DNA of 63,937 bases, filler included, from Collodictyon triciliatum (Eukaryota), in the NCBI GenBank assembly GCA_043381765.1. It is 12 parts of 12 records of this genome, joined end to end, with 100 filler letters (N's around TTAATTAATTAA, not from the genome) between each part and the next. Parts side by side here need not be neighbours in the genome. Positions count along the whole stretch, not along the records: positions 28,234 to 33,766 come from JBHJMP010005133.1; 11 more parts are not named here. One strand, written 5' to 3'. A program made the translations under genes and the position numbers. Shown piece after piece: positions 4,400 to 34,009 of this stretch (positions within the stretch are counted from its first letter, which is position 1; every line of letters starts with the position of its first letter). The notes under the pieces were generated by a model. That model ran no database searches. It was given only the letters and a program-made list of their open reading frames with translations, and had not been told where the DNA came from.

Positions 4400-5539
4400 T
4401 TATTGGGTCAGCATCATCTGTGCATCCGACATTTTCTTTTCAGAGAGCTTGGTATGGAGATGGTCTGCACCATAGACTGTCCTGAAAATCGTGTTGGCAT
4501 TTTTATACAAATCCAAAGCCTCTTGGAATTTCTCCTGGTTCATAAGTAGATTGCCAATATTGAAGTATGTATTCCCAACATTAGGATGCATTTCTCCAAA
4601 CACTTTCAGCTTAATTTCAAGTGATTTGTGGTAGTACTCCAGGGCTTTCTCATATCTATTATATTATAAATTAACAGAATGATAAACATAATAAATATAT
4701 TGATTAAACATACTTTTCCAGATCATTGTAAACATTTCCAATATTATTATACAAATCGGAAATATCAGGGTGTATTTCTCCAAATACTTCCAGTCGGATA
4801 TCAAGCGATTTATGATAGTATTCCAAGGCTTCTTCATGACTATCAAATAGTTAATTAAGTATAGATAAGCATACATATATTTTCATGCAAAACATACTTT
4901 CCGAGGTTATTGTAAACATTTCCAATATTTCCATAAGACATCGCAACATCAGGGTGAATTTCTCCAAAAACTTTCAATTTAATTTCAAGTGATTTGTGAA
5001 GGTATTCCAGGGCTTTTTCATCTCTATTTAACAAAAAGTCAATATATTTCTAGATATATACTAAATGTGTATACATATATAAATTATACTTTCTGGGTTG
5101 ATGGTAAATCAACCCCATGTTATTATATGAGGCAGCAACATCCGGGTGATTCTCTCCGTACACTTTCAGTTGAATTTCAAGTGCTTTCTGGTAGTACTCC
5201 ATAGCTTTTTCATATCTATTAAATGATTAATTAATGACGAGATAAATATAAAAACAATGTCAAATAAAATATACTTTCCAAGGTTTTTGTAAACAACTCC
5301 CACGTTGTTGTAAGAGATGGCAACATTAAGGTGGATTTCTCCAAACATTTCCAGTTTAATTTCCAGTGATTTTTGAAAGTATTTAAGAGCTTTTTCATAT
5401 CTATTAAATAATATGTCAATCAAGAAATAACGATAAATACACAATTAAATAAAACATACTTTCCAAGATTCCTATAAACGACTCCAATATTATTAAATGA
5501 TGTGGCAACGTCAGGGTGATTCTCTCCGTACACTTTCAG
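4400..5539 (-). CDS. 42-aa TPR-repeat protein (kinesin-light-chain/nephrocystin-3-like repeats), 5' part lost at scaffold end
   Basis: Exons 5460-5539 (partial), 5275-5400, 5090-5215, 4898-5023, 4714-4839 (each 126 nt) and 4400-4655, with GT-AG phase-2 introns of 58-66 nt. Repeats read like [42 protein letters not shown]. Confidence 0.93.
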
Positions 5540-5639
5540 NNNNNNNNNNNNNNNNNNNNNNNNNNNNNNNNNNNNNNNNNNNNTTAATTAATTAANNNNN
5601 NNNNNNNNNNNNNNNNNNNNNNNNNNNNNNNNNNNNNNN
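5540..5639. other. Artificial scaffold linker (N44-TTAATTAATTAA-N44)
   Basis: The same 100-nt spacer, with stops in all six frames, recurs at 11228-11327, 16865-16964, 22500-22599, 28134-28233, 33767-33866, 39373-39472, 45002-45101, 50642-50741, 56270-56369 and 61892-61991. Confidence 0.98.
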
Positions 5640-5695
<56 letters not shown>

Positions 5696-6079
5696 GTGGG
5701 GGGGGGGGGGGGGGGGGGTTTGGCAGGTATTATTATTATTTTTTTTTTGTTCCTCTCAACTCTGTCTCTCATTGTGTGATCGCTACATCTATTCACATTG
5801 TGAGATATATCGGCCTTTAGGAAAATTCTTAACTAACACAAACACAAACACAAACACAAACACAAACAAACATACAGTGGAAACTTATTATATGGAATAG
5901 ATTTATTGTGATTACTTCTTTTTCTTTCAAGAAAAAATTATTCCGGAATACCGGGGTTTGGGTAGAGAATGTCGCGAGATGAAGAGTTAACAGACAGATA
6001 GCAGCCACATGTGTGTTTAGAGAAAGAGGGTCATTTTGAGAGAAAAAAGAAATACTGCTGGATTCTCCAAATCATAGGC

Positions 6080-9000
6080 TCATATTAGGGGAAGGAAATC
6101 GTGCCTAAAAAGAAAGAAAAATTTTTTTTAGCTGTGCCCATGGCATAAACAGCAAGTGGCACTTATCAAGGAGAAAATATAAACTATGTACTTGTCAATC
6201 AGCTCTTCCTTTCGTGTATTCTGTGTGCGATTTGGATTGCCTTTGCGGGCAGGTGTGATGATAGGGGGCATCTGCGTGCAATAGCATATGATTATTTTGG
6301 CCATTTATTACGTTGAAAGGGGTTTATTTAATGAAAAATTCCGTGTTTATGCGAAGACTAGCTTAGTAGTAATATCAGAAATGCATAGATGAAAAAAACT
6401 CATTTTCTTTAACATACCTTGTCGGCCTTTTCGAGTGGGTTGCGAGTGTTGTGACTTTTGTTTCCTTTCAAGCCCAAAAGCTGCGAAATGTCTAGAGTAA
6501 TATCCAATTTCTGGTGTCTCAGTTGGTTCACAAGTGCCGTAAGTGCCTGATTGCAACAAAGAGGGGGGAAAATAGTATTTAATACCATCGAAAGGAAAAT
6601 GCTAGTGAGAAAATGTCGATTCTTCTACTATATAAGAGTTTTGCAAAAAGATAAGCCAACCTGCTCAAAAATGGAAACATTTAACTTTTTGTCCAGCTCG
6701 ATGCGTGCTTCATGTCGGAATTGTTTTAGGTTCAATACCTTGTAAAAAAAAATACATAAAATTTAAGATGTAGTTTTAGAAGCCTATTCGACAGAGATCC
6801 ATAACTAAATTGTTTCGGATATATAAACATTTATTTATCCATAATAAGCAAGAAAATTTAAAGAGGGTATTCTTAAAATTAACTCCAAACAAGAAATTCA
6901 ATTTTATTACAGCTTGCAGCTTCTGTATTTTCTGGATTAAGACAACAACGAGAGTTCGAAGCTGTTCACTTGATTCAAAATCCACTATTTTTGAGAAAAG
7001 AGAGAACAAAGGAAGAGAAGGAAAGTGATAAATGATGAATACCAAAGCATAAATAACTCGAGCATGTCATAAAATAAAAATCTAGGTATTTTCAAGACTT
7101 CAGAAGACAGAAAAATTTTCATTTTACTTACAGACACCATAGAATTTTGTCAGTATTGACTGCAAATGAGAGGCAGCCTATTGAATGGTGGATTGATGCA
7201 TTAAGAGAGGAGGAGAAATACGACAAGGGAGCAAATATGAAATCACCCGGTGGAAACATTTTTAAGAAGTCAACAACCCATTCACCTGTGCGGTGGAAGC
7301 TGCCTTGACTTGGCTCGGTAGCTGCGGTTCGTTATGTGTCATTTCAGCATTGCCAGCTAGTTCGTATGGATATTAACAACGAGAGAGAAAAAAGGGAGGA
7401 ATTTGTAGGAGTTACTAATTTTTTTTTGAAAAATAATGCCATAAAAAGGATAGTAGAGTTACCGAGTCCTGGTATTATGTCTGGTGACAAAGTGCTGTTG
7501 CCTTGAAGAACGGGTGATTTTGGACCAGTATTTGCAAAACGAAGCGAAGGTGATTCAGACCCAGGACTTCTGCTCTCAGCAATGGCCTGTGGGTTTTGTC
7601 CCTCCTTTGGTGTGTCTTCTGACCCCATTCCGGCGTAGATTTGAGGCTCGAGTGACCCGTCTGTCGGAATATCTGCATGTGTTTGCTCTTCACGGTTCAT
7701 GAGCTGTGGACTTGCTGTTGGGCTGTTGTGATTAACGGGTACATTAATGAGTGATGTATACAATGTTCAATTAGATCGTATGGTTGTGTATCAGCTTTCC
7801 ATCTGCAATTACTTTTGTCGGGGTATGGGGCTTGGTGATGCGTTCAACTGCTGCGATTTGTCCCCCCTGGCTTCTCTGGCTTTCCTCTTTTCAACCTCAC
7901 GATTAAGTTGGCCAGGTATGGGGCTATATTTAAAAAGCATGGACATCAAAAGGGGAAAAAATAATAGCTAAGGCATTATAAAATTTAATGAACCTCCATA
8001 TGACTATGGTATTCATAAGGTAAGCCTTTCGTTATTAGAGGAAATTAATCAACTAATCATTGTGATAGCTTCAAAAGAGCTTTATAGCTACCTTGCGCTC
8101 GGAGAACCTTCAACAACTCGAGTGTTATACATGCCTTGGTCTTTCCTCTTTTCTACAATTAAGTTGTAAATATGAGTGAGAGATAAAGAAATAAATTGAA
8201 CCCGCTGTGCCTCGAGGGTGACTGTACTGGAGATAAACGGTGCCATGAAAATAATCATATTTTTTGGTGTTTGTATGAACCTCCATTAGGGTTTGTCTGC
8301 TGGGCCAGCTCGTCAAGATGAAATCCTGAGTTGATATCAAACGTTTCTTGGATATCTCTTAGGAGTTGTGAGACCATTAACGCGCGGAAGTTGTCAGCCC
8401 TGCAAGCGAATTAAATAGAAATTTGCATCCAAGAAAAAATATCACTCAGTGCAATTGAGTGAGTATTTCATCTTCAATCGTTCAAGAAAATGTCATTTTT
8501 TACTCTCTCAGTTCTGCATCAGATAATCCATCAACTAATTCCTCTTTGTTGATCTGAATTTTGAAGAGTGAAAATTGTGTATTATATTTACGGATAATCA
8601 TGTTCCTTCATAGTACGAATAAATGCTTAGCTTGCGCAGAAAGCTAACGACATAATACCAAAGTGATTTTAAAAAAAATACCTTTCTTGGGACTTCGTCT
8701 CGAACATACAAAGACATATCATCAAACTCTTCAAACTTTGTCTGGCAGTGGTCAGATAATACCTTCAATTCCTATCAAAGAAAATCCATAGTCTAAGTAG
8801 CATGCGGCTTCTTGGATATCGTTATGAAGAATGGTATGGGTTTTTTGTGCAAGTCGGGATTTTCTCTCGATTTTTTTTTATGAAATGTTGGTGAGAGTGT
8901 ATTGAGTGTGCTACTACCTTAAAGCATCGGGTTGTCTGACGGCTGATATCCTCTCGAACTCGTTCATATAGCTTCTCATAGATGGCACTTTTGTGCTGAG

Positions 9001-19474: not shown

Positions 19475-22213
19475 TTATCCCAAGAAAACTTTGCCGAAAC
19501 ACTGAATACGGTTGTTTCCTTGGTCGCATACATACATGCGACCATCCAGGCCGAAACATATACCCCGAGGATGAATGAAGTTGCCATCAGCAGAGTTCGC
19601 ACGAGTTCCAAACTTGAAGAGGATCTTACCAAAGCGCGAATAGACGTGTAACTTACTCGAAGAAAAATCAGAGATGAAAATGGTTTGGTTCGGACCCTCT
19701 CGGACTGTAGCGTAATCTGTCAATTGCTGAATGTTGACTGAGCGAATGAACGAACCGCAGGGACTGAAAAACTTGACCTTGCTTGCATCTTTCCCAATCA
19801 CACAAATCTCATTGACAGAGTTTACATGAATCCATTGCGCATTTGAAACCTCACCATCCCCACATCCCTTTTGCGCAAAGGAGCATTGGTAGGTGTAGGA
19901 AGAATCAAACTTGTCAACGCGGGACTTTAAGGAATTACAAACATACAGATTGCCATCTGCATCAAAATCCAACCCACAAGGAAGAGAGAAGCCATCGAAT
20001 ACTTTTCCTGGTTCGCTTTTCGTGTGTGAACTAGAAATTATTTGAAGTAGGCTGAACGAATCGTCTAGTACTTGAATACGATTGTTTTTGCTATCAGATA
20101 TGGCGATTCTTTTATCCTTTGATATGGAAATTCCATTTGGAGTATTGAACTCTACATCTCCTGTCCCTTTCACTCCAAAGCTGTGCAAGTACTCGAGATC
20201 TTTGGTCAAGACTTGAATCCTGTTATTTCCAGTATCCGTTACATACAAGTCACCTGTTTCAGGGTGGCATGCAATTCCCCACGGGTTAAGGAATTGCAGA
20301 TGGTCGGCTCCTCTGACTCCGACTTTTTGGCATAAGAGGCCGTAGTCTGCAATCTTTCTACCTCGGAACTGTTTTGAGAGGGTATAAATCCCAGTCTTTC
20401 GAACAATATATTTTGCTTCGTCGGCAACCTTCATATCAATATGAACTAATCCTGGTTGGATAAATTCTAAATGTCCCATCAGTCGAGTGTAGTCTATTTC
20501 TTCCTCTCCTTCAAGTGGAGAAATGTCAAGCTCGGTCCAGTCGTAGTCTTTCTGTATTTTTTTGAATCCATCCAAAGATTTCTGGCATATATGCCTCACT
20601 CGTTCCAAAATCTTTTCGTTTTGAGTCATGGTGTATTCTCCCAATGCCTCCTTGCAAACTTTTTCAGCGTGTCGGAGGACGCATTCTGAGACGTCTAAGT
20701 CATGTTCCTCTATGTTTGAGGCCCTCCAAATTTCATTATGCTGCTCATTGGCCTAAAATTGCAAGAATTTTAAAAACGTTTGGTTCAATTAGTGACAATT
20801 CAGATAAATGTTAGTTTCGCATAGGTTTCAGACATTTAGATAAGCAAAGCGGCAAACTTCACTAAATAAAGGTAAGCAGGGGAAAAAAAAACGCCTTACA
20901 ATGTCGAGTAGCCTTGCTTTTAGGAGGTCGAGGGAATCCAATATCTGCCTCACTTTTTCCTTCTCTGTTTCAATATAGTTCCTTATTTGGTAAGACGTAT
21001 CTTCTGCTTTCACCTTGCCCTTAAAGGTGGAAGAAACATTGGTTGAATATGGATAAAAAAAAATAATACACATCATCATTTTTGACTTACTATACAGATT
21101 AAAGATTGACTTGCTGATAAAAATTGAAATCAAGTTTTTAAAGAAAAGAAGAGAAAAAAGCTCACATGGTAAATCATTTCTTTTACAATAGAATGTTTTC
21201 TTTCGGTTAATGACAATGCATGTGAACATTGTTGTACAAGATCTTTTAGATTTGTTATGTTCATTTCAACAATATCTTTGACTTGAGTGTGTCGATGTGA
21301 ATTATGTGATCGCATGTCCATATGGGAGCACCGAATACACATGTATGTACCGCCATTGCAATCGACACAAAAAAATTCTGCAATAGAGTTAGGATGAGTG
21401 AGGCAAGTAGGCACCGAACCACATTTTTCTGCATCTTGAGCTTCACTGCAATTATTGTCAAAAAAAAATGTTTTCAGAGCTGTAGTCAAAAAGTGCATAG
21501 AAGCTACAAGCAAAATTCCTTAGCATACCCTCCCTGTATCATGTCAATATATCCAAAAAAATTAGTCGTAATAACCATAAAAAAAATATGTTACTTCGAT
21601 TCGAATAAAGGGGAGAGTGATAAGAACAAAAGTGATATAAAAATAAGTAAATATATAAATATACAAATAGCATCCAAAGTTCACAATTTGTATTCGCAAA
21701 GACACATTACATCAAAGGGTGCTCTCTCGTGGCCAAAAGACTTTTGTGGGCAGTCGAACAGCCTTGACACAAGAACCCGCAGCCAGCTCGGCAAAAGTGA
21801 ACCGAAGGCCATGTACAACTATGACTATTGCAATTTGGTGTTTCTTTCTTTGACTGCGGTGATGCAAAGAGGTTTTCATTGCTGTTGAACTTTGCTACAT
21901 GAGCCATAAGGTCTTTGTCCAACGCAAATATATCGTGTAGAATGGCCTCTGGATCGACACTGGGATGCGAGCTTGTCGGGCTACTCACAGACATCCCAGC
22001 ACCCGAAGAAAAAGCTGCGTTTGTACGACACACAGGACATGTGACAAAAGACTGTCTTTTCTGAATGGAGCTCGTAATCCGGCTTGACAAACATGATGAG
22101 CATAAATGATGTCCGCACGGGATTTTGTGCGGCTCTGTGAGTGCGCCTTCACATACCGGACAGCATAGGTGCACCGGAATCAAGGTGCCTTCGTCTGAGG
22201 TAAAGACGCTCAT
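19475..22213 (-). CDS. TRIM-NHL-like E3 ubiquitin ligase (RING, two B-boxes, coiled coil, NHL repeats)
   Basis: RING CPVC...PCGHHLCSSC...CPVCR, B-box1 CNSHSC...HFCRAGCGFLCQGCSTAH, B-box2 CLTHPNSIAEFFCVDC...MCIRC...H, and NHL repeats FLNPWGIA...LYVTDTGNNRIQV and FIHPRGIC...YVCDQGNNRIQCF. The last exon lies in ORF 19475-20644. Confidence 0.93.
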
Positions 22214-22679: not shown

Positions 22680-24820
22680 CTCCCATTACTTACCGTGCCG
22701 AATCTGAACCCAGATGTTAAAGTGGGGGAGTGGCAAAGCGAACTTAACGGTGTTCTCAAGCGAGAGACACGATATCAGCAACAATCGAGTGCTCCAGAGA
22801 TTGCGAAGAAGATATTTGGCTCTAATCCTGTTGCCGTAGCAGAGAATCAACAGTACGAAAGGGTCATAAAGTAAGCTCCTTTTTTTTTTTTTTAGCCCCC
22901 ATTGTATACTTCAGTTATATCAGAAATCTAGTCATTTCATCGTAATTTTGATTGCTGAACGAGATTGGCTTGTTTATTATGCAGTATAGAATTGAAAGAA
23001 ATCATTATGTAACACGCCATTCTTTTCACAGCGGTCTGCGGGTACAATCACAACTTATCTTGGCTGGAATACCATACTGTGAGCACTTTCTCATCTCCAC
23101 AATCCAAAAGATTACCGGTAGAGGCGATTCGTGTGACATTGAAATATATGCAAGGGTATGTTTTGCTTTTTCTTAGTTTATTTGTATTTCTTTATTCAAA
23201 ACTTTTCAAATAGCCATTTGACTCCTTATTCTGTAGTCACTCTCCTCGTGTTCATCAAGTTGATTGTCTTGATAATTTTGTTCAAATGTTTTGTTTGTTA
23301 TGTTTGTTATGTTTGTTTTGTTTTGTTTTGTTTTGTTTTGTTTTGTTTTGTTTTGTTTTGTTTTGTTTTGTTTTGTTTATTTTTATTTTTTATTTTTTAT
23401 TTTTTATTTTTTATTTTTTATTTTTTATTTTTTATTTTTTATTTTTATTTTATTTTATTTTTGCTGAAAAAGATTTCTGGATTCCTAAACGCAGGTAGAG
23501 TTTACCAAGTACATATTTGGAGTTACAGGTTTTTCACTATTTATATCATAGCATTATTCATCCTATTGATAATGAACCACAATCACACCATTTTTTTCCA
23601 ACCACAATCACATCATATTTAAGAAGGAAAGTGAGAAGAGAAAGGAAGCAAACAGAGCATAAAATAAGAATGATATGAGAGTAGGACTCAAATAAAAAAA
23701 CTAGTGGACAAACACAAGAGTTCCAAAGTTCATGGCATCCATAAAGCATTCAAAAAAATCACAGGGATTGTTGAGGGTTCTTTACATCAGGAGGCCATAA
23801 CCACACAGGAAAAGTGGATCATCGCTGCAAATCAGTTTCTGGAGGCCAATCCCGAACAAGTCCCAAAACTTACATACATTACATACTGATATACACCCAT
23901 ACTGCTTTCGCACTCTAACCAGAACTCAATACACCGCACCCCAGAACGAAGAGGAAGAGGAGGAAGAAGAGGAGGAAGAAGAGGAGGCAAGGGAAGAAGA
24001 GGAAGTCGACCATGACAGAGTCGAAGAAGCAGGAGGGGTTCTTGCCGCCCTCCCTAAACCCGAGAGTGAAGGGCAGAACGCATCGCAGCACCAAGCAGAC
24101 GAAAAGACCGACGAACTGGCCCAAGCAGCCGAAACACCAGCCCCCGATCAAACAGATAGTCCTGCCCAGCCCGCTCTTACGGCCAAGAGCTCTTCCAACC
24201 TGCCCCAGATCGCAGAGTCAGGCAACACGCCGCAAAGCGCCCAGACTCCACAGCCTCAGAAGCCGGCCAAGCCACGCCCAAAGCCACCCAAGGCCTCTGC
24301 TGTGTCTCGCATTCCTGTGAATGCGGCACCGGAACCCAAGACCACAGAAGAGTTGCTTGGGCGTACGAAAGAGCCTGATGGGCATGCCAGGCAGGGAAAT
24401 GCCTTCTCAAGCCCAGCAAACGCAGCCTGCGCAGCTGCCGCAAGCTTCCTGCTTCACCGCCAGTGGATTCTCGTTGCATCCGGCACAACCCACGCAACCC
24501 TCTCGCGTCCGTCAAAGGGACTCGCCCTTGTGCTCATCGCCCTCCTTGTGGGCCGCAGTCTCCGCACAGGGACGTGCAGCGACTGTCCTGGCGATCTTGG
24601 CCGGGCTATGCCATGGTGCTGCCGGCGCATTGGCGCTGCTAACGCGCTGATTGTGTGGAGCACAACTCCAACAAAAACGCGGCATAAACCAGAGTCCCCG
24701 CTCGTAGTGTGGCAGGCAGCAAGAACCCAAGCTTGGAGAGCCTTTGATCCGCCCCAGTCTGCCGAAAGGGAGAGAGAGAGGAAAACACAGGATATGCAGT
24801 GGCTGCCCAGGTGCAATTAG
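22680..24820 (+). CDS. VASt (StART-like) domain protein with acidic/Pro-rich linker and a possible C-terminal membrane anchor; 5' truncated
   Basis: VKVGEWQSELNGVLKRETRY..., then LRVQSQLILAGIPYCEHFLISTIQKI (VASt-like xPYxxxF motif) and KITGIVEGSLHQEAITTQEKW, followed by a poly-E exon from ~23945 and a hydrophobic GLALVLIALLVG. 3' end uncertain. Confidence 0.6.
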
Positions 24821-24885
24821 GCGAGAGAGAGAATGGTGCAGCGGAAGTGAGTTTGGTAAATGCATGCGTTTATTTATGGTACCAT

Positions 24886-25590
24886 TTAGGCCTTGACGCG
24901 GATCTGGCTGGCGACAAGGTCGAGGTCGCGCTGGCCGGCAGAGGTGATGCGGCGGCCGCTGGGATCGGAAGAAGGTCGGGTTAGAGGAGGATGGCGATTA
25001 GTGGACTGGAGGCATAGCAGGGCGCTCACCCTTCGGGCAGCTTCTCGACCACACCGAGGCTCTCAAGACCCTGGAGGGCTTTGCGGATGACGCCACCGGA
25101 GGCGGGGCAGAAGTGGGAGGGGGCGGCGCCGTTGTTGCGGTTGCCTCCGAAGACCTTGCGGAAGGCTCCGACACCGGTGCCCTGGCGGAGGTAGACGCGG
25201 CGGGCAAGGGCGGCTGTGTGGGCGGCGGTTAGTGGGGCGGCGTTGCTGCTTCCCGCAGGGGAGGCACGATCGGGCGCGAAGGGTCTCAGCTCTTTGTCTC
25301 TGAGCAGGCACCCACGTGGGAGAAGAATCGGCAAGTATAGAGAAGAGAAAAAAAAAAAGAAAAGAAGAGAAAAGAAGAGAAAAAAAGAGAAAAGAAAAGA
25401 AAAGAAAAGGCAGACCGGCACGGACGTAGAACCAGTCGGCCTCATAGGGAGCAAGCTCCTTCATGCTGGAGGTCTTGACAAGGTCGACCCACTGGGGGAT
25501 GGGCAGCTTGCCCTCCTTCTTGAGGTGTGCGGCATAGGCCTTGATGAAGTCCTGGGCGGGGATGTCCTTTACGGTGCACGACTTGGGCAT
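24886..25590 (-). CDS. RPS19: 40S ribosomal protein S19 (eS19)
   Basis: Exons 25416-25590, 25030-25213 and 24886-24958 give [82 protein letters not shown]...[19 protein letters not shown]. Probable 5'-UTR intron at 25601-25837. Confidence 0.97.
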
Positions 25591-27623
25591 GTTGGCGGAT
25601 CTGTGCCGGGCAGATGCGGCCACGCAGGTAGGGGCAAGAGGGCGGCATAGAGGGAGAAGCTCGGCGTGAGTGGGTGTTTGCTGTGTCGGGTCGGACTTTC
25701 TTTTATGCCCGCCTGGGGAAGACTTCGAGAAAAGTGGCGGAGGCGACAAGTCGCTTTGTGCGCGTTGTTGGAAGGTTGTGGGGTCGATAACAGGGACGGT
25801 GCGAGAAGAGAAGGCGGGGGCGCAGAGGGCCACTCACTCGTGTGGGTCTGGGTTGTTCTGGCCGGCTTTGGTCAGGGGACGGATGCTGGAAACCACGCGG
25901 GAGAGCGAAAAGAGGATTTGTGATTTACGTCGGAAATTACACAGATTCGGCCTTTTTCCATTCACATATACCAAAGCCTCCAAAACACGCTCTCAACAGG
26001 GCAGACACAAAAAAATTATTTTGACGAAGGCTCAAACTATTGGGTTTTTTTTCGTTTTCCTTCGAATTCACTATGAAAAAATTTTCTTCCCTGGGTGGTT
26101 TGGCAAGGAAAAAAAAGAAAGAAAATGTGACCACTTTCGATGAAACTATACATAACTGGATAATATTTTCTCATACGTTTCATACTCCTATTATTGTATT
26201 TAGGACAATGATTGTGGTGTAAATTAAAAATATATATAGAAAGAGACGAAAAAAAAGTCCTAAATGTAAAAATGCATTGAGGTTATGGCAGAAATAATAA
26301 TTTGTAAACAAAGTCAATAGATTGTCTCTCTTTCTGCTTGCCTCGAGAACTTTGCTGCATGGAATATACAGAGAAATCGTACGATTCAAAAGTTAACCAC
26401 AAATAAATACAAAATTGGAAAGAATTCCTGTTGGGATGGAAAGCCATTCGATTCTGGGTGTCCATACCAGTTATGAATGCGCCGCTATGTTCGTGTATTG
26501 GAACGCCCCTGGTTCCTCTTTTCTGGCCGCCCTGTGGCACATTCCGTGGGTGGTTGGTTTGTAGGGTAAAACGTATTGTTTTTCGATGACACTTCAGTCA
26601 TTTCCCCATTTCCTCACTCATGTAGTGATTGTGAACCACGCTCGGACATTACGAACCTCTGCAAAGTAAGATAAATATATATTTAATTTTATAAAAAAAA
26701 AAAAGCCTACAAACGAAATCTCTATCTTAACTGATTGTAACTTGACAAGAGGACATGTCCAAGTATTCATCGATGTAACCATATGTTTATAGTAGTATAG
26801 ATTAAATTCGATTCAGGCACATATGGAATCTTAGTGGTACAAAAACTCGGAGTGGTGATGTGTGTTTTTTACTTTTAAATTTTTCTTTCGATTTCTTAAT
26901 GCAAACAAGATATGCTGAATGACAGGGAGAAGGCACTGGCAAAGAGGAGATACGATAAGTTTCTTTTCTTTTCGTTTGTCCAACTCCAAATAATGCAATC
27001 GAATAAAGGAAAAATAAACTAAAAATAATGTAGGGAAGGATAGCTGACTGGGTTACATAAAAAACTATATAATTGATAAAATAAAAGCCTTATACCTACT
27101 ATCAAACATGTCCAACCAAAGTATGATAATTGCGTTTTGAAACAGTAAGCGCGAGCAAGCATAGAAAATGAAAGGTTTGTTGTGCCTGACCAAAAGAATT
27201 ACTCCTTGTGAGTATCTCGAGTGGAAGTATTTCACAGAAATGTTTTGTAAGGTTTCTACATGAACGAAATGTATCTGAACATAAACCAAATAAGAATCGA
27301 TGTTCCATATGATATAGGTATTTCTGCAGTCAATTAATATGAAGACACCTTGAACCAATATGGTTGTAGGTAGCGCCAAAGAATTTCCACAGCCGCATAT
27401 GATAGAGTTATATATTAAGCATGATTCAACATCAGCATGCTTGACTGGACAGAATTCTTTGGTAAGGCTTCCCATGGCAATCAGCCCGTTCCAAAATGAT
27501 TCGTGTGGAAGCATTTGACGCACTGAGGTGTATTAGCACCCCCACGGGTTTTGGTTGTAAGGTTTCCTGTCTGGTGCCGTTCTAGGAAATTATGGTTCTC
27601 TGTGGCACATTTGAAGCACCGTG

Positions 27624-28056: not shown

Positions 28057-28345
<289 letters not shown>

Positions 28346-28416
28346 ATAAATGGATTGCCAATATGGTTGTCATTCCTGAAAACATGACATCTAAACAATT
28401 TAAGAAAAATCGCAGA

Positions 28417-30314
28417 CTACGCACTTATTGAAGTGATCCAGTCCATCACACTAGGCACCCTGAGGTAGACGCCTATGCTCATCGAATCAAAACACTGGTC
28501 TCCATAGTTAAATATTCCAACAATAACACTTCTCCCTTTTCCAGTAAATAATGGCCCTCCTTCATCTCCAGGACAACTTCCAACTCCTCCGTATTCGCTC
28601 TATGCGTCCAATATATACATATTAGTAATTATAACTTTATCTAAGCAGATGATGTGAGAGGTTTTCTCCGTTCTTCGATTATTGGTGTTTTAAAAAAATA
28701 TAAAACTAATATTTAGCCAGATTGCGATTCAATTGGTAGATTTTCTTGTTGAACTTCATCAACTAATTACTTTGAATCGAATAAAGGAAAAAAAAAACTT
28801 CATCAACTAATTGTAATAATTCATACAAAATAACCCGGAATACCAGCGCAAAGCTCATTCCCTGTCCAATTCGAACTTAGGTATTCGATGCATCCGTTCG
28901 TAAGATCCACAGGGATTTCAGTTTCGTGTAAGACGGGGTTTATGTAATAATCTAAACTAGATGTGTACCCCCAACCAGCCACCCTTAAGATTGAGCCTGT
29001 CTGCGACAAGTAGGAGCTTCTGAACGTGCCCAAAGAGGCCCCCTTGATATCAGTTGGGCTTTCATATTGGATAAGTAAACCATTTATTAACCAGAATTCA
29101 TTATTGTAAATGAAACTTAGAATGGAATTGAAGCTGTCATTGCATTAGCATAAGATCATGTATCTCTTGTATTTCATAACCTTATTACACTTTGAATCAA
29201 ATATAGCATATATAAAAAAAGTATTAAACCAGGTGTCTGAAAGTCAATCATACATTTTTGGCATAAAAACAAAGTAAATTAAATGCATTTCATTCCACCA
29301 GANNNNNNNNNNNNNNNNNNNNNNNNNNNNNNNNNNNNNNNNNNNNNNNNNNNNNNNNNNNNNNNNNNNNNNNNNNNNNNNNNNNNNNNNNNNNNNNNNN
29401 NNNNNNNNNNNNNNNNNNNNNNNNNNNNNNNNNNNNNNNNNNNNNNNNNNNNNNNNNNNNNNNNNNNNNNNNNNNNNNNNNNNNNNNNNNNNNNNNNNNN
29501 NNNNNNNNNNNNNNNNNNNNNNNNNNNNNNNNNNNNNNNNNNNNNNNNNNNNNNNNNNNNNNNNNNNNNNNNNNNNNNNNNNNNNNNNNNNNNNNNNNNN
29601 NNNNNNNNNNNNNNNNNNNNNNNNNNNNNNNNNNNNNNNNNNNNNNNNNNNNNNNNNNNNNNNNNNNNNNNNNNNNNNNNNNNNNNNNNNNNNNNNNNNT
29701 CTTCGATAGCGGTTATTCCAAATCATGGGCATCAATACTAACAGTATTTGAAAACAAAAAAAAATAATAAAACAAATTGATCAAAAGAACTTTGGATTAG
29801 ATTTATATATGGTAGAAATAAAGACCGTATGTTCCTCCCTTAGCCGCGCAGGTTGCTGATGTTATGACATAACGTGGGTGAATGAGAGATCCGATACATT
29901 GATGTAAAAAGTAGTCAAACATGTTTGTCGTTGAAAAAGTAATAGAGGCGAGCCATGGATACTGCCACGAGGCAGATGCATATCCTCCAGCGATCCGCTC
30001 TTCTGATTATTTTTAATTTATTTCATTCATCGTCAGAGTTTACTTCAATACTGCATCATATTAGGCCTGTTCATAGGATGTATATTTGTGTAGCAAGAAA
30101 AGACATTAATGCATGGTACTAAAAACTCCTTCGCAGGTACTCATAAACAGGAAGCGAGAGGACCGTAGTGGGCCAATTCCAAAACAGACTTGTGAAATAT
30201 ATGAAATCATTAAGCCATCTTCTTGCCTTTTTGTCGATCGCCACCATGGCAGAGAATAGTATGGCCCATGATTACAAGTATTACAATTGGCAATAAAATC
30301 GTGAGAAGCTTCAT
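28417..30314 (-). CDS. Secreted trypsin-fold (S1A) serine protease homolog, catalytically inactive
   Basis: Signal peptide MKLLTILLPIVILVIMG..., activation site ER/IAGG, then QYPWLASI, CIGSLIHPRYVITSATC (His to Thr), VAGWG, NELCAG, SCPGDEGGPL (Ser to Glu) and GVYLRVPSVMDWI. The first intron needs a GC donor (30226). Assembly gap at 29303-29699. Confidence 0.88.
28769..28797 (+). mobile_element. Ultra-short poly(A) retroposed insert, family 1, intronic
   Basis: ACTTTGAATCGAATAAAGG(A)10 with a perfect 17-bp TSD aacttcatcaactaatt (28752-28768, 28796-28812). Confidence 0.9.
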
Positions 30315-31220
30315 TGTATCACAGGGATAGTCTGTCTGGGGATGTATGTTCTGTAATTGCAGAAGTAGACCCTAATCTAGTTCGACTAGACACACAAGAG
30401 ATAAAGAATCACTAACAAACACATATTTGTGTATATTCCAGAGCTAATTACAAATTATTTATCGTCCCTTCTCCTTCGCTCGGCTCCATTAATACTATGC
30501 CCTTACATTTTTCTTTTCTTCCTCTTAATTCTTGTGCACTGAGCAAGACCTCATCACAATATATATATATATATATATATAAAGCTACACGAAGAGATAA
30601 TTGCCGATAGAATATCCGGATTAGAAAGCAACACCCCAACGAAGAACCCCCCTCAATCCTCGAGAAGATTCCCTCTGGGATACTTGCATGAACCAATAAG
30701 TTTCAAGCTTAATCAAGACAAATCAATAAAATAAAAAAAGGAAAAGTCAAAGCTACACTTAAAAATCCGCACATACTCCAGTCCTGTTGAGATCACTCTA
30801 TGACGAAGGGAGCAACTACCCCCTCTCTGCAATCTTAGGTTTCTTCTCTTTAGGCAACCACCTGTAGTCGATCGTGCCAGGCAATCCAATATCGAGGCTG
30901 CGCATGAATCAAATGATGTAAGATTAAAGCTATTGATTAGTCACTTTACAAGCGACAACTGCAAAGGCACATCGCTCTCTTATGCAGCGCAAAACTTTAG
31001 CGACGATAATCTACTTATATGTCCATACACAAAGCATTTTATAAATTAAATATGTTATAATATAATATAGGAAAAGATCAGTGGAATATATAGTTAATAC
31101 AAGCATATAATGATACATTAAAAGCAATTATAAAATATATTCCACAATTATTTTACCGTTATTAACAGTTTCCTTTTGCGGGTGACGTTAGTGCAGGATA
31201 ATAGAATTGGTGATGGTGTC

Positions 31221-31715
31221 CCTTCTCAGCGTGCCTGACATCCTGTTTGGCCCACAATACCAAATGACCCACGACTCTAGAATACTCTGGACAGTCACAA
31301 GAAGACATATGCTGTGGGCCTTATGGAGTGTGCGTGCATTCTCTTGCTCCAATGATTCACCCGAACGAGAAATCAACGTAGCCAGGCTTGAGAGCCTCGT
31401 GCAATACAGCTTCCTGGACAGCTTGCTGAAACATGCTCACATTCTTCGCTACTCTGACCGCAAGCGGAGAGAGATGTGGGAATGTGTCGTGCGATATCTC
31501 CCACAGCATATCCAACCCCTGCTACCCACGCAACCAATCAACCAGTTGGGTCGCGCGCCTGACCAACTTGCTATCACTGATTTCATTCCAGTGCTACCCT
31601 CTCCACGGTAGTGTCTTCTCCTACTCGCGTTTGCTCTCTCCCATGCGCTCCCATCCCGCCCCTTTGTATGGCATAGCCTTGTGACACTATTAATTAAATA
31701 AAAGGAAAAAAAAAA
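31221..31715 (+). mobile_element. 5'-truncated non-LTR retrotransposon (LINE): ORF2 C-terminus, 3' UTR and poly(A)
   Basis: Intronless ORF ending at TAG 31609-31611 with RHMLWALWSVRA (like the L1/Tx1 C-terminal WxxWxxR motif), a 3' UTR, AATAAAAGG(A)10, and a 13-bp TSD tggtgatggYgtc (31208-31220, 31716-31728). Confidence 0.8.
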
Positions 31716-31769
31716 TGGTGATGGCGTCAATCAGAGTGATGAATTTCCGCGGAATTTTAAAATTACTGG

Positions 31770-31882
31770 AAGGAGCACAACATCTTTCATTGGCAAACCT
31801 GGTTCGCTATATCCAAGGTCTCACCACTTTTTTCACAGGTTGTGTAGTGGTGAAGGCTGCCAGGAAAGACCCGACAGCCTGT
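31770..31882 (-). ncRNA. Candidate Fanzor omega-RNA scaffold
   Basis: Three abutting hairpins directly 3' of the Fanzor reading frame: 31855-31879, 31821-31853 and 31797-31819. Hairpin 1 pairs fully only on the minus strand (G-U pairs). Possible 6-bp pseudoknot CACAAC/GUUGUG. Boundaries are inferred. Confidence 0.55.
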
Positions 31883-33060
31883 TATTTTAGAGGTTTATGC
31901 ATTTTTTGAAGGATTAAAAGAACTTTCTCGAGTATATTTTTAGCGCTGTTAAAGTCCCTTGTCAAGAATACACTTTGTTTGCTTTCTCAGCGATTGCATT
32001 AATTACATATGAGACATCTTTTCTTTTTTTTTTTGTATTTCCTTTCGGTGTCATGTATCAGTTCTTTTTCGCGTTGCAGCACATTTTGGACGTTATAAAT
32101 TCATCTACATTAACTGTTTCGAAATGTTTGGATAGTATTTTTCGTAATCCTCTTCTGATTGTTGGCATAAAATGTTTCATCGTAGATTTTCTGCTCCAGT
32201 TTCCATACGCCAGTACAACATTCTTGCCAAATGTCTTTTCGATTCGGTCCATAAACAACGGTTCACTTCATTTTGTTCTAGCATAATGTCTCCGTCTCAC
32301 CTTTCGAAAAGTTACTTATTCATAAAATCTGGAAAATTCTATCCGGTATCTTGATTTTATAGATACATATTCTCAATTTTTTTCATAATCGACCGTGCAT
32401 GAATATTTTTACTCGGTTCTGTCTCTAAATCGATTAAAGATAATCTTACTGTCTCAAACAGCTGATTCTCTTCAAAAGTCATTTGACCAAAAGAAAAGGC
32501 ACTTTGTAAAACTGTTGCCATGCATATAGCTGAAGCCTTGTACTTTATATTTCTCGCGCAAGAGTATTTTTTTGATTTTTAAAGGATTTGCTCTCATGTC
32601 TTCTTTGGTGTGCCGTGTAACGTGATTTCTTACCTGTCTCATCCACTATGTAAACAAAATTAAACTTGCCTGGATCCACTCCAACTATTTTATTTTATTT
32701 TTTGTCGCTAATAATGATAACTGCTCTTCGGAAAGTCCATCTATGTGGACATATTCTTCGGTTTTTTTTTATTACATTTTGAATTTTGAATTTGAAATGC
32801 CTTTCTTTTTATACAATAATGTCACTACCAAGCTGTCTGTTTGTATCATGTATTTGAAATTGTAGTCTCTGTGATGAAAGACCCTCTTTATTTCAAAGAC
32901 ATTATTCCCACATGGTCTCTTTGCATCCTGATATATTCTTCAGTAATGATGTTTTCCAGATGATACTAATAGACCTATCGAACATGCAGTACCTAGAGTA
33001 ATATGACATGGTGTAGTGTTAGTTCTTATAGAGATTGGTCGAAACAGTCTGCGTCGAATG
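31882..33060 (-). pseudogene. Fanzor1 (eukaryotic TnpB-like RNA-guided endonuclease) pseudogene
   Basis: Ordered motifs: RLFRPISIRTNTTPCHI; YNFKYMIQTD; YVHIDGLSEEQL; RuvC-I IVGVDPGK (D at 32674-32676); RYTAHQRRHES; TVDYEK...FRKVRRRHY; TFGKNVVLAYGNWS...HFMPT..GLRKILSKHF..VNVDEFITSKMCC (E at 32100-32102); second CxxC; RuvC-III FLTRDFNSAKNI (D at 31954-31956). Many stops and frameshifts. Confidence 0.88.
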
Positions 33061-33669
33061 TCCTAAAAAATGCCATTGATGTAAAAAAGAAAAAAGAAAC
33101 GGGTGAATGAATCAAAGCAACCAATACTTAGCAAAATATTCATACTTATCTTGCTACCCGTGGGTCGATAGCAGAACTTGAATCATATGAACCCTTTCTC
33201 CAGTGTCTCTTGTTCTCTTCGATTCCTTGCGCGGAGCGCTTGGTCATGGAGCCTTTCATCTCTTTGCTGGGGTATCTCCCTTTGGTGTCTTTGTCAATCG
33301 TAAACCCGGATCTTTGTTAGTCTGCCTCCCTTTCTTCAGGCGTGTCTTTTTGCCTCTTGACTTTTGCAAGACCACTTTTTCTCTCCCTCGCTGTTTTTTT
33401 TTTTTTCATCTTGCTACTCGTTTTCCAGGTCAGGGCTCCTGGTGGTTGCAGCTTTTAGAGTTGTAATTATCCTCGACTCACTCGGGTGCGTAGTGATGAG
33501 CCATAAATCCAGCCTCCGTATCCAGCCGGCCTGCACCCTTACCCAACACGCTTCACTGCTTTCAACTAAGGTGCACACAACAACATCGGACTATAAAAAA
33601 TAATAATCTAAAAACCCTTCCTTCCCTTGAATCAAATAAAGGTGAACCCCCCAACCCCAACCCCAAGCC

Positions 33670-34009
33670 AAACAAAACAAAACAAAACAAAACAAAACAA
33701 AACAAAACAAAACAAAACAAAACAAAACAAAACAAAACAAAACAAAACAAAACAAAACAAAACAAANNNNNNNNNNNNNNNNNNNNNNNNNNNNNNNNNN
33801 NNNNNNNNNNTTAATTAATTAANNNNNNNNNNNNNNNNNNNNNNNNNNNNNNNNNNNNNNNNNNNNTCTCCTAATTTTGATTTCATTTTGTACCAGCTTA
33901 ACTTAGATATTGTATTGTATTGTATTGTATTGTATTGTATTGTATTGTATTGTATTGTATTGTATTGTATTGTATTGTATTGTATTGTATTGTATTGTAT
34001 TGTATTTTG
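33670..34009. repeat. (AAAAC)n and (TATTG)n microsatellites at scaffold ends
   Basis: Direct reading: 33670-33766 and 33908-34009. Confidence 0.93.

Follow-up and report, generated by a model that had tools for sequence, protein, structure and literature searches.

A dead, 5'-truncated Fanzor1 relic in a contig of the Collodictyon triciliatum assembly

Can a gene whose reading frame has been broken many times still be assigned to its family, and what can be said of the element that brought it? This question is raised by a stretch of 63,937 nucleotides, here called the window, that is made up of 12 parts of the Collodictyon triciliatum assembly GCA_043381765.1 and in which a preliminary description had reported a decayed copy of the nuclease Fanzor1 on the minus strand, almost invisible among the open reading frames (ORFs). 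Fanzor1 is described as a eukaryotic, TnpB-like RuvC endonuclease that is guided by omega-RNA and rides in transposons. The sequence in question lies entirely within one contig, which occupies positions 28234-33766 of the whole stretch. We are confident that it is a dead, 5'-truncated Fanzor1 gene copy in eukaryotic nuclear DNA and an ordinary member of a known family, of which the rearranged active site, the many genomic copies, the Mariner/Tc1 carriers and the presence in giant viruses and metazoans are in print (PMC3627910, PMC10530073, PMC10432273).

The best-conserved part of the relic is a 69-amino-acid (aa) piece at 32058-32267. In a search of 1.84 billion representative proteins, this piece gives 535 matches at E<=1e-3 and 72 at E<=1e-10, the best having an E-value of 3.2e-21 and 65% identity, which is the upper limit of its likeness to any of these proteins. 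The nearest proteins are short fragments (57-65% identical), while many other matches are 590-700 residues long, are matched near the C-terminus and, as long relatives, carry all motifs of the preliminary description in the same order. There are 41 matches of 570-730 residues, of which 39 were aligned (two near-copies of the relative P0009 were omitted) and turned into a family profile, a hidden Markov model (HMM). In this alignment, the Asp of DPGK, the Glu in QRR.E, the Gly of YG.WS and the Glu of DE..TS are invariant, and the Asp of RD.N is nearly so. A homologue search with a view to longer proteins found one, P0160 (626 aa, 55% identical), among 10 candidates.

When the family HMM is compared with the 3783 stop-to-stop pieces of at least 8 aa in the six frames of the whole window, exactly five match at E<0.01 (E 6e-4 to 3.4e-33), and the next best has an E-value of 1.7. 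All five lie inside the relic, on the minus strand, in profile order (Table 1), so that the similarity to Fanzor and the collinearity of the motifs claimed at first sight are borne out. Because the relatives were recruited with the 69-aa piece, the E-value of that piece is partly circular, and it is the other four pieces that serve as independent tests. The peptide strings listed in the preliminary description are all found on the minus strand: RLFRPISIRT at 32940-33062, FKYMIQTD at 32772-32939, IVGVDPGK and RYTAHQRRHES at 32545-32694, VLAYGNWS and VDEFITSKMCC at 32058-32267 and TRDFNSAKNI at 31882-31986, the full set spanning 31882-33062; FRKVRRRHY and the second CxxC (RCLIC) are seen in the frameshift-aware alignment described below. 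FRKVRRRHY stands at the end of a weakly conserved middle part, which has no match of its own to the family HMM among the 3783 pieces. This part is interrupted by 3-6 stops, changes frame two or three times and contains a lineage-specific insert, which P0002, the closest fragment, shares.

Among solved structures, the family profile matches the Fanzor1 proteins of Parasitella parasitica (E 3.6e-99), Spizellomyces punctatus (E 1.5e-95) and Guillardia theta (E 4.5e-85), the matches covering positions 7-598 of 608 of the profile and nearly the full length of these proteins. At the level of fragments, the 69-aa piece has Parasitella Fanzor 1 (PpFz1) as its best solved match (E 2.8e-7), and the piece that carries RuvC-I has SpuFz1 as its sole solved match, at the D383 site and with a weak E-value of 0.17. 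The Fanzor1 identity proposed at the outset is thereby upheld. Of 14 relatives scanned with Pfam, 10 show the family PF07282 (Cas12f1-like TNB, the old OrfB zinc ribbon) at E<=0.01 and no more than 3 reach its curated cut-off, so the assignment to Fanzor1 has the solved structures and our own profile as its basis. Of seven single fragments of the relic, none is recognised by Pfam (no relevant family, two weak unrelated matches), so that the copy is invisible to routine annotation; as the fragments are short, this null result is not counted against homology. ORFs across the relic on the plus strand and elsewhere on the minus strand give no Pfam family above noise and hence no rival coding reading.

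We next consider the active site. SpuFz1 holds two magnesium ions by E541, D383, N385 and D606, of which D606 is called catalytic (Saito et al. 2023). The chain numbers of this structure, minus a 394-residue tag, place the ligands in the profile columns of the Asp in 'vgvDPGk', the Glu in 'lvdEykTS' and the Asp in 'lnRDvn'. In the relic, the codons in these columns still read Asp, Glu and Asp, so that the three acidic catalytic codons do survive as had been stated, and the other features of the rearranged site are equally present: a Pro codon follows the RuvC-I Asp, the YG.WS column holds the Gly that is invariant in the 39 relatives, the relocated Glu stands in DE(F/Y)xTS, and RuvC-III RDxNxA reads TRDFNSAKNI. 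Fanzors are reported to have Pro or Gly at the canonical RuvC-II Glu and to need an alternative downstream Glu for cleavage (Jiang et al. 2023, PMC10530073); on this account, the Gly of the relic would take the canonical RuvC-II place. The family signature given earlier is D-X(125,275)-[TS]-[TS]-X-X-[C4 zinc finger]-X(5,50)-RD, with a Gly and a Glu specific to Fanzor1 at G500 and E536 of SPu-1-1p (Bao & Jurka 2013, PMC3627910). The D...TS...RD part of this signature and the Fanzor1-specific Gly and Glu occur in order in the relic, with an incomplete zinc finger. The zinc ribbon of the preliminary description is accordingly only partly there: both knuckles are found, but one Cys of the first has become Ala, and stops lie inside the second (32001-31999) and just behind it (31989-31987).

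One further residue of this region is the Glu in the QRR.ES block behind RuvC-I (E399 of P0009; 32595-32593 in the window), which is invariant in 39 of 39 full-length relatives and kept in the relic. It is not one of the SpuFz1 metal ligands listed by Saito et al. 2023.

The damage to the copy was mapped with a dynamic programme that allows for frameshifts, by which four relatives were aligned to the minus strand (Table 1). Each of the three alignments that span the relic contains 15-16 breaks (6-10 frameshift steps and 6-9 stops), a number that varies somewhat with the reference. The stops at 33065, 32001 and 31989 are common to all three spanning alignments, those at 32318 and 32270 appear in all four alignments and that at 32375 in three, and frame changes recur near 32951-32955, 32903-32906, 32688-32691, 32567-32573 and 32058-32072. 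The stops of the relic are substitutions. Its longest open piece is 69-73 aa, and an uninterrupted frame of ~600 residues does not exist. Profile positions 1-232 find no match to the family HMM anywhere in the window, and the N-terminal parts of three relatives score 31 on 33100-33766, no better than shuffles (maxima of 33-40). "Decayed" was therefore an apt word, and the N-terminal part is indeed not recognisable, with the correction that the "scaffold end" said to lie beyond it is a contig junction, at 33766. With ~230 N-terminal residues missing and stops and frame changes in what is left, the copy is dead and, judged from its sequence, cannot encode the nuclease. By the same measure it is a Fanzor1 by descent, having the homologous features, and not a working Fanzor1, for it lacks the open frame, the N-terminal part and a complete zinc ribbon.

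The intact ancestor would have been a protein of ~600-680 residues that associated with an RNA encoded at the 3' end of the element. By analogy with SpuFz1 and other Fanzors, from which RNA-guided cleavage is known, its substrate would have been double-stranded DNA with a match to the guide beside a target-adjacent motif, cut by one RuvC site formed by the Asp of DPGK, the relocated Glu of DE.xTS and the Asp of RD.N. The relic retains no more than the stretch corresponding to residues ~234-616 of P0009, namely the RuvC-containing C-terminal part and the zinc ribbon; the N-terminal ~230 residues are lost, and what is left is broken by at least five stops and at least five frame changes.

Is the relic a single stray copy or one of many? 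Contigs from public sequencing runs were placed on the window at >=85% likeness; of seven runs, five contain 5-12% of the sampled words, and the contigs placed are those of X1-X4. In X1, which carries a single-organism label, 168 contigs fall on the relic at >=85% identity, with 8 at >=99%, 45 at 95-99%, 61 at 90-95% and 54 below 90%, while three runs labelled freshwater metagenome have 1, 71 (X3) and 20 (X4) contigs. One contig of 242 bases is identical to the window. Contig cover is high over ~31828-33043 and drops on both sides, and the loose ends of three contigs set the low-side limit at 31842 (two of X1) and 31838 (one of X4), such that the repeat unit reaches ~42-46 bases behind the stop codon. 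A comparison of breaks with these other copies covers two stops and four frame changes. At the stops 32001-31999 and 31989-31987, every placed contig has another letter; near 32567 and 32905, all placed X1 contigs differ by one base in length, and near 32951 and 32403, some of them do. Beyond these sites, there are 230 more differing places and 45 more differences in length. The spread of identities is that of a family of diverged copies, and at least some of the breaks are private to the copy in the window. Since many diverged copies exist in at least one sequenced organism, the relic is the debris of a transposon that multiplied in this lineage, and the copies without several of its breaks make it more likely that intact ones exist elsewhere, as the preliminary description had surmised.

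Just upstream of the relic, 33108-33427 has separate X1 cover with a summed depth of up to 160 at 33364-33427. A second repeat probably lies here, and the 5' truncation of the relic may be due to it.

The carrier of the gene has to be sought among its relatives. A scan of metagenome contigs with a six-sequence alignment gave at least 598 pattern matches, at least 463 of them confirmed, and most of the 80 loci kept are single uninterrupted full-length matches. In a FastTree phylogeny of 154 rows, the relic is nearest to P0154 (44% identity over 353 columns) and to a group of L001-L003, P0155 and P0156, although the smallest well-supported set that contains it is a broad one of 75 of the 154 rows. 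Intact genes in giant-virus-like contigs are its closest full-length relatives, and some of these genes sit in elements bounded by terminal inverted repeats (TIRs) with a DDE_3 (Tc1/mariner-type) transposase. The clearest case is locus L002, where an intact Fanzor1 gene of 634 aa (6001-7905) and a divergent DDE_3+HTH_28 transposase gene (4638-5678) lie in an element of 3316 bp (4637-7952) that is bounded by perfect 32-nt inverted repeats (4637-4668 and 7921-7952). From the Fanzor stop it is 16 nt to the start of the right repeat and 47 nt to the end of the element, the latter distance being close to the ~42-46 nt of the window's repeat unit. The element is an island of 40-48% G+C (GC) inside gene-dense DNA of 26-34% GC. 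The right repeat recurs in L001 and L003, whose sequences diverge immediately beyond it. This combination of a DDE_3 transposase gene with Fanzor1 inside inverted repeats, set in giant-virus-like DNA, is that of the Mariner/Tc1-type Fanzor1 elements PGv-1, PUl-1, HMa-1 and their relatives (Bao & Jurka 2013, PMC3627910).

By analogy with these nearest full-length relatives, the relic was probably carried by a Tc1/mariner-type (DDE_3) element that was bounded by TIRs and had its Fanzor gene on the right. A carrier of this kind would agree with the Mariner-type Fanzor1 elements described by Bao & Jurka 2013 and with the association between Fanzor1c and Mariner/Tc1 (Jiang et al. 2023, PMC10530073).

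Behind the stop codon, the relic has a short 3' tail with an 11-bp hairpin, a tail that may be what is left of the right end or of the omega-RNA region. Folded as RNA, 31820-32020 has a z-score of -3.44, with 1 of 200 shuffles as good, and the equivalent 200 nt of L002 have a z-score of -5.9; a second stem in the tail crosses the inferred end of the element. Going by these fold statistics, the 3' folding fits the published placement of omega-RNA at the Fanzor-proximal end. Rfam gives one chance-level match on the relic contig at E<=1 and none in the whole window at gathering scores, the tRNA search gives none, and at the nucleotide level the tail does not resemble the right ends of L001-L003.

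A number of observations weigh against this account of a dead copy from a multiplied Tc1/mariner-type element. As for the carrier, neither a left end nor TIRs nor a target-site duplication is present in the window, the 3' tail has no inverted partner in the contig, and a DDE_3-like gene lies upstream, on the opposite strand, in only 14 of the 80 metagenome loci. No transposase relic is found in the window either, the best tblastn match of the L002 transposase having an E-value of 0.049 at 12648-12487, on another contig. As for the family of copies, contig depths are not copy numbers, and X1 may not be the species of the window. As for the decay, 4 of the 10 frameshift steps on the P0009 path fall at homopolymers of at least 5 bases and could be assembly errors. 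To these must be added the reference-dependent break count, the broad set in the tree, the Pfam null on single fragments and the rarely reached cut-off of PF07282, all given above.

The alternative that survives best, and that we nevertheless regard as improbable, is that the relic is a fragment of an integrated giant-virus genome rather than a transposon copy spread in the host. Full-length relatives are abundant in viral collections, with 441 matches and 391 confirmed in IMG/VR, where the record of the 254,533-base contig of L002 (L081) bears the tag GVMAG in its name. The neighbours of L002 in its gene-dense, GC-poor surroundings include, by Pfam, 2C_adapt and SET (both below curated cut-offs), DUF5755, CP12 and a ribonucleotide reductase small chain, and a viral origin has been suggested for a Fanzor element of Hydra (Bao & Jurka 2013, PMC3627910). 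What is repeated, however, is only ~1.2 kb of Fanzor sequence with a drop of cover on both sides, which points to a mobile element and not to a viral insert, and the flank holds an intron-bearing trypsin-like gene. Moreover, the 69-aa piece matches 159 of 159 fetched loci with only 49-57% identity in the 15 best, and in the viruses the Fanzor gene is itself inside a transposon. Arrival with a virus and later spread as a transposon are not mutually exclusive.

Next comes a live Fanzor1 gene whose breaks are introns and assembly errors, which we think very improbable. Eukaryotic Fanzor genes can have introns (Jiang et al. 2023, PMC10530073), piece 1 is directly preceded by a pyrimidine tract and an AG, and the frameshift steps at homopolymers would suit this explanation. 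Yet at least five stops lie inside well-aligned conserved blocks and not between them, the frame changes 6-10 times in 1.2 kb without matching alignment gaps, a zinc-binding Cys has been substituted, the 680 bases between the relic and the contig end show no N-terminal homology, and the fetched relatives are mostly single uninterrupted matches. The other copies, in turn, differ from the relic at the two stops and four frame changes compared.

Comparison with known systems bears on a third alternative, a prokaryotic TnpB or an IS607-type Fanzor2, from contamination or another branch. TnpB (IS200/IS605) and Fanzor2 (IS607-type) are described as having, like Fanzor1, a single RuvC and a zinc ribbon and as being RNA-guided and transposon-borne; Fanzor2 shares the relocated Glu (Jiang et al. 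2023, PMC10530073), the layout D...TS...zinc ribbon...RD is common to all (Bao & Jurka 2013, PMC3627910), and some relatives of the relic touch PF07282. Most TnpBs, in contrast, have Glu at the canonical RuvC-II place, where the family of the relic has Gly, and are shorter, while the relatives, at 590-700 aa, are Fanzor1-sized. The profile that matches the three Fanzor1 structures finds no TnpB, Fanzor2 or Cas12 chain at E<=0.01 among solved structures, the remaining chains at that level being two 'LaTranC' with the zinc-ribbon stretch alone. With a eukaryotic split gene on the same contig as well, this possibility can be given hardly any weight. The order of conserved blocks from KLFQP to the C-terminus is the same in the relic as in SpuFz1 (8gkh), Parasitella parasitica Fanzor 1 (9cf0) and Guillardia theta Fanzor1 (9cer), and they share the D/E/D columns, the Pro after the first Asp, the Gly in YG.WS, and TS and the zinc ribbon before RD. 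The relic differs from these solved proteins in being a pseudogene without ~230 N-terminal residues, with its 15-16 breaks and one lost zinc ligand, and its intact relatives are only distantly alike to them in sequence. From the Mariner/Tc1-type Fanzor1 elements it differs in that the window has no transposase, left end or target-site duplication. Finally, the idea that short motifs have come together by chance in non-coding, AT-rich DNA, for which one could cite that single fragments have no Pfam match, is rejected with a negligible residual probability by the five collinear profile matches (E 6e-4 to 3e-33 vs 1.7 for the next best of 3783) and by the 535 database relatives, the best at E 3e-21 among 1.84 billion proteins.

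Fanzor1, the eukaryotic counterpart of TnpB and Cas12, is sought as a compact genome editor. The dead copy is itself useless for this, and its value is to flag a lineage with a repeat family in which an intact, distinct Fanzor1 may be found. It also illustrates that frame-aware reading recovers relics where ORF lists and Pfam see nothing, and its giant-virus-borne relatives are a further example bearing on the idea, published as early as 2013, that such elements travel between eukaryotes in large viruses. A further-reaching picture, which we offer tentatively and consider somewhat unlikely, is that of a freshwater eukaryotic host (probably an animal, going by the trypsin-like gene) with a fairly young, many-copy Fanzor1 family, maybe including active full-length copies, whose nearest intact kin sit in Tc1/mariner-type transposons of aquatic giant viruses. 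If this is true, transposons would have moved between giant viruses and the genome of a eukaryote, and the family would be a natural source of a new RNA-guided nuclease.

Table 1. Features of the Fanzor1 relic and of its contig, in positions of the window
Feature	Position	Strand	Basis or remark
Whole relic, 5'-truncated decayed Fanzor1 copy with short 3' tail	31838..33086	-	frameshift-aware alignments, likeness limits of other copies
Piece 1 (RLFRPISIRT)	32943..33062	-	profile 233-262, E 6e-4
Piece 2 (FKYMIQTD)	32775..32939	-	profile 285-324, E 1.2e-5
Piece 3 (RuvC-I IVGVDPGK, RYTAHQRRHES)	32548..32694	-	profile 356-399, E 4e-15
Weakly conserved middle part, FRKVRRRHY at end	32285..32544	-	frameshift-aware alignments
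Piece 4 (VLAYGNWS, VDEFITS, first zinc knuckle CCNA)	32061..32267	-	profile 465-532, E 3.4e-33
Piece 5 (RuvC-III TRDFNSAKNI; frame ends at stop 31884-31882)	31885..31986	-	profile 558-589, E 2.9e-5
RuvC-I Asp codon	32676-32674	-	profile column of SpuFz1 D383
Pro directly after RuvC-I Asp	32673-32671	-	codon mapping
Gly of YGNWS	32204-32202	-	invariant YG.WS column, 34 residues before Glu
Relocated catalytic Glu in VDEFITS	32102-32100	-	profile column of SpuFz1 E541
TS	32093-32088	-	~194 codons after RuvC-I Asp
First zinc knuckle CCNA	Cys 32081-32076, Ala 32072-32070	-	Ala aligns with C540 of P0009
Second zinc knuckle	31996..32016; Cys codons 32016-32014, 32007-32005, 31998-31996	-	frameshift-aware alignment, codon mapping
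RuvC-III Arg, Asp, Asn	Arg 31959-31957, Asp 31956-31954, Asn 31950-31948	-	Asp in column of SpuFz1 D606
3' tail behind stop codon, 11-bp hairpin 31880-31854	31838..31884	-	candidate remnant of right end/omega-RNA region
Alignment to P0009, residues 234-616 of 634	33086-31851	-	164/418 columns identical, 10 frameshift steps, 6 stops
Alignment to P0154, residues 141-540 of 547	33146-31891	-	169/436 columns identical, 7 frameshift steps, 9 stops
Alignment to P0160, residues 227-605 of 626	33089-31885	-	140/416 columns identical, 6 frameshift steps, 9 stops
Alignment to P0002 (middle part only), residues 1-200 of 209	32655-32053	-	105/201 columns identical, 4 frameshift steps, 3 stops
Trypsin-like gene, at least three exons	29806-30006, 28824-29144, 28420-28599	-	Pfam Trypsin, E 2e-9 to 1.5e-4

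The setting of the relic is defined by the make-up of the window, which consists of ~5.5-kb contigs chained by linkers of 44 N, 12 bases and 44 N. Between 5540 and 61991, we observe 22 runs of exactly 44 N, paired 12 bases apart in ~5.6-kb steps, and one additional single gap of 397 N. In the pair at 33767-33866, the 12 bases between the N runs (33811-33822) are TTAATTAATTAA, which has a stop in all six frames. As the linkers join contigs, 'genes' on either side of a linker are not genomic neighbours. The trypsin-like gene is on the same contig and strand as the relic, ~1.8 kb downstream of it, with a part lost in the 397-N gap, and its split structure marks the DNA as eukaryotic, probably animal, nuclear DNA. 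Its product has TSATC and GDEGGP at what we take to be the places of the catalytic His and Ser motifs of trypsin and, by its sequence, looks like a non-catalytic serine-protease homologue.

The only repeats around the relic are microsatellites. A (CAAAA)n microsatellite precedes the contig end at 33766, and long (TTTTG)n/(CAAAA)n and (TATTG)n microsatellites are found at or near contig ends (33668-33766, 35054-35152 and 33888-34012), along with three TTGGGG units at 33648-33666. These microsatellite and TTGGGG repeats probably caused the assembly breaks at contig ends.

On the neighbouring contig, 27133-27309 (+) is a possible second, tiny Fanzor-like remnant that resembles the FETV..TSK..C stretch; with tblastn E-values of 0.007-0.08 and frame-aware scores of 53 and 51 against shuffle maxima of 38 and 43 (15 shuffles), it is not significant alone. 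The stretch 24001-26000 stands out by its 59% GC, compared with 26-43% in the other 2-kb steps of the window, and could be either a compositional island or foreign DNA, from another organism, within the assembly; this contig carries an exon for ribosomal protein S19e (25063-25833, minus strand, Pfam E 8e-20). Elsewhere, a 425-aa open frame with NHL repeats (19475-20752, minus strand, E 3e-25) and a RING-finger frame on the same contig (21707-22300, minus strand) look TRIM-NHL-like in sequence, and another contig has an F-box-like frame at 52980-53552 on the minus strand.

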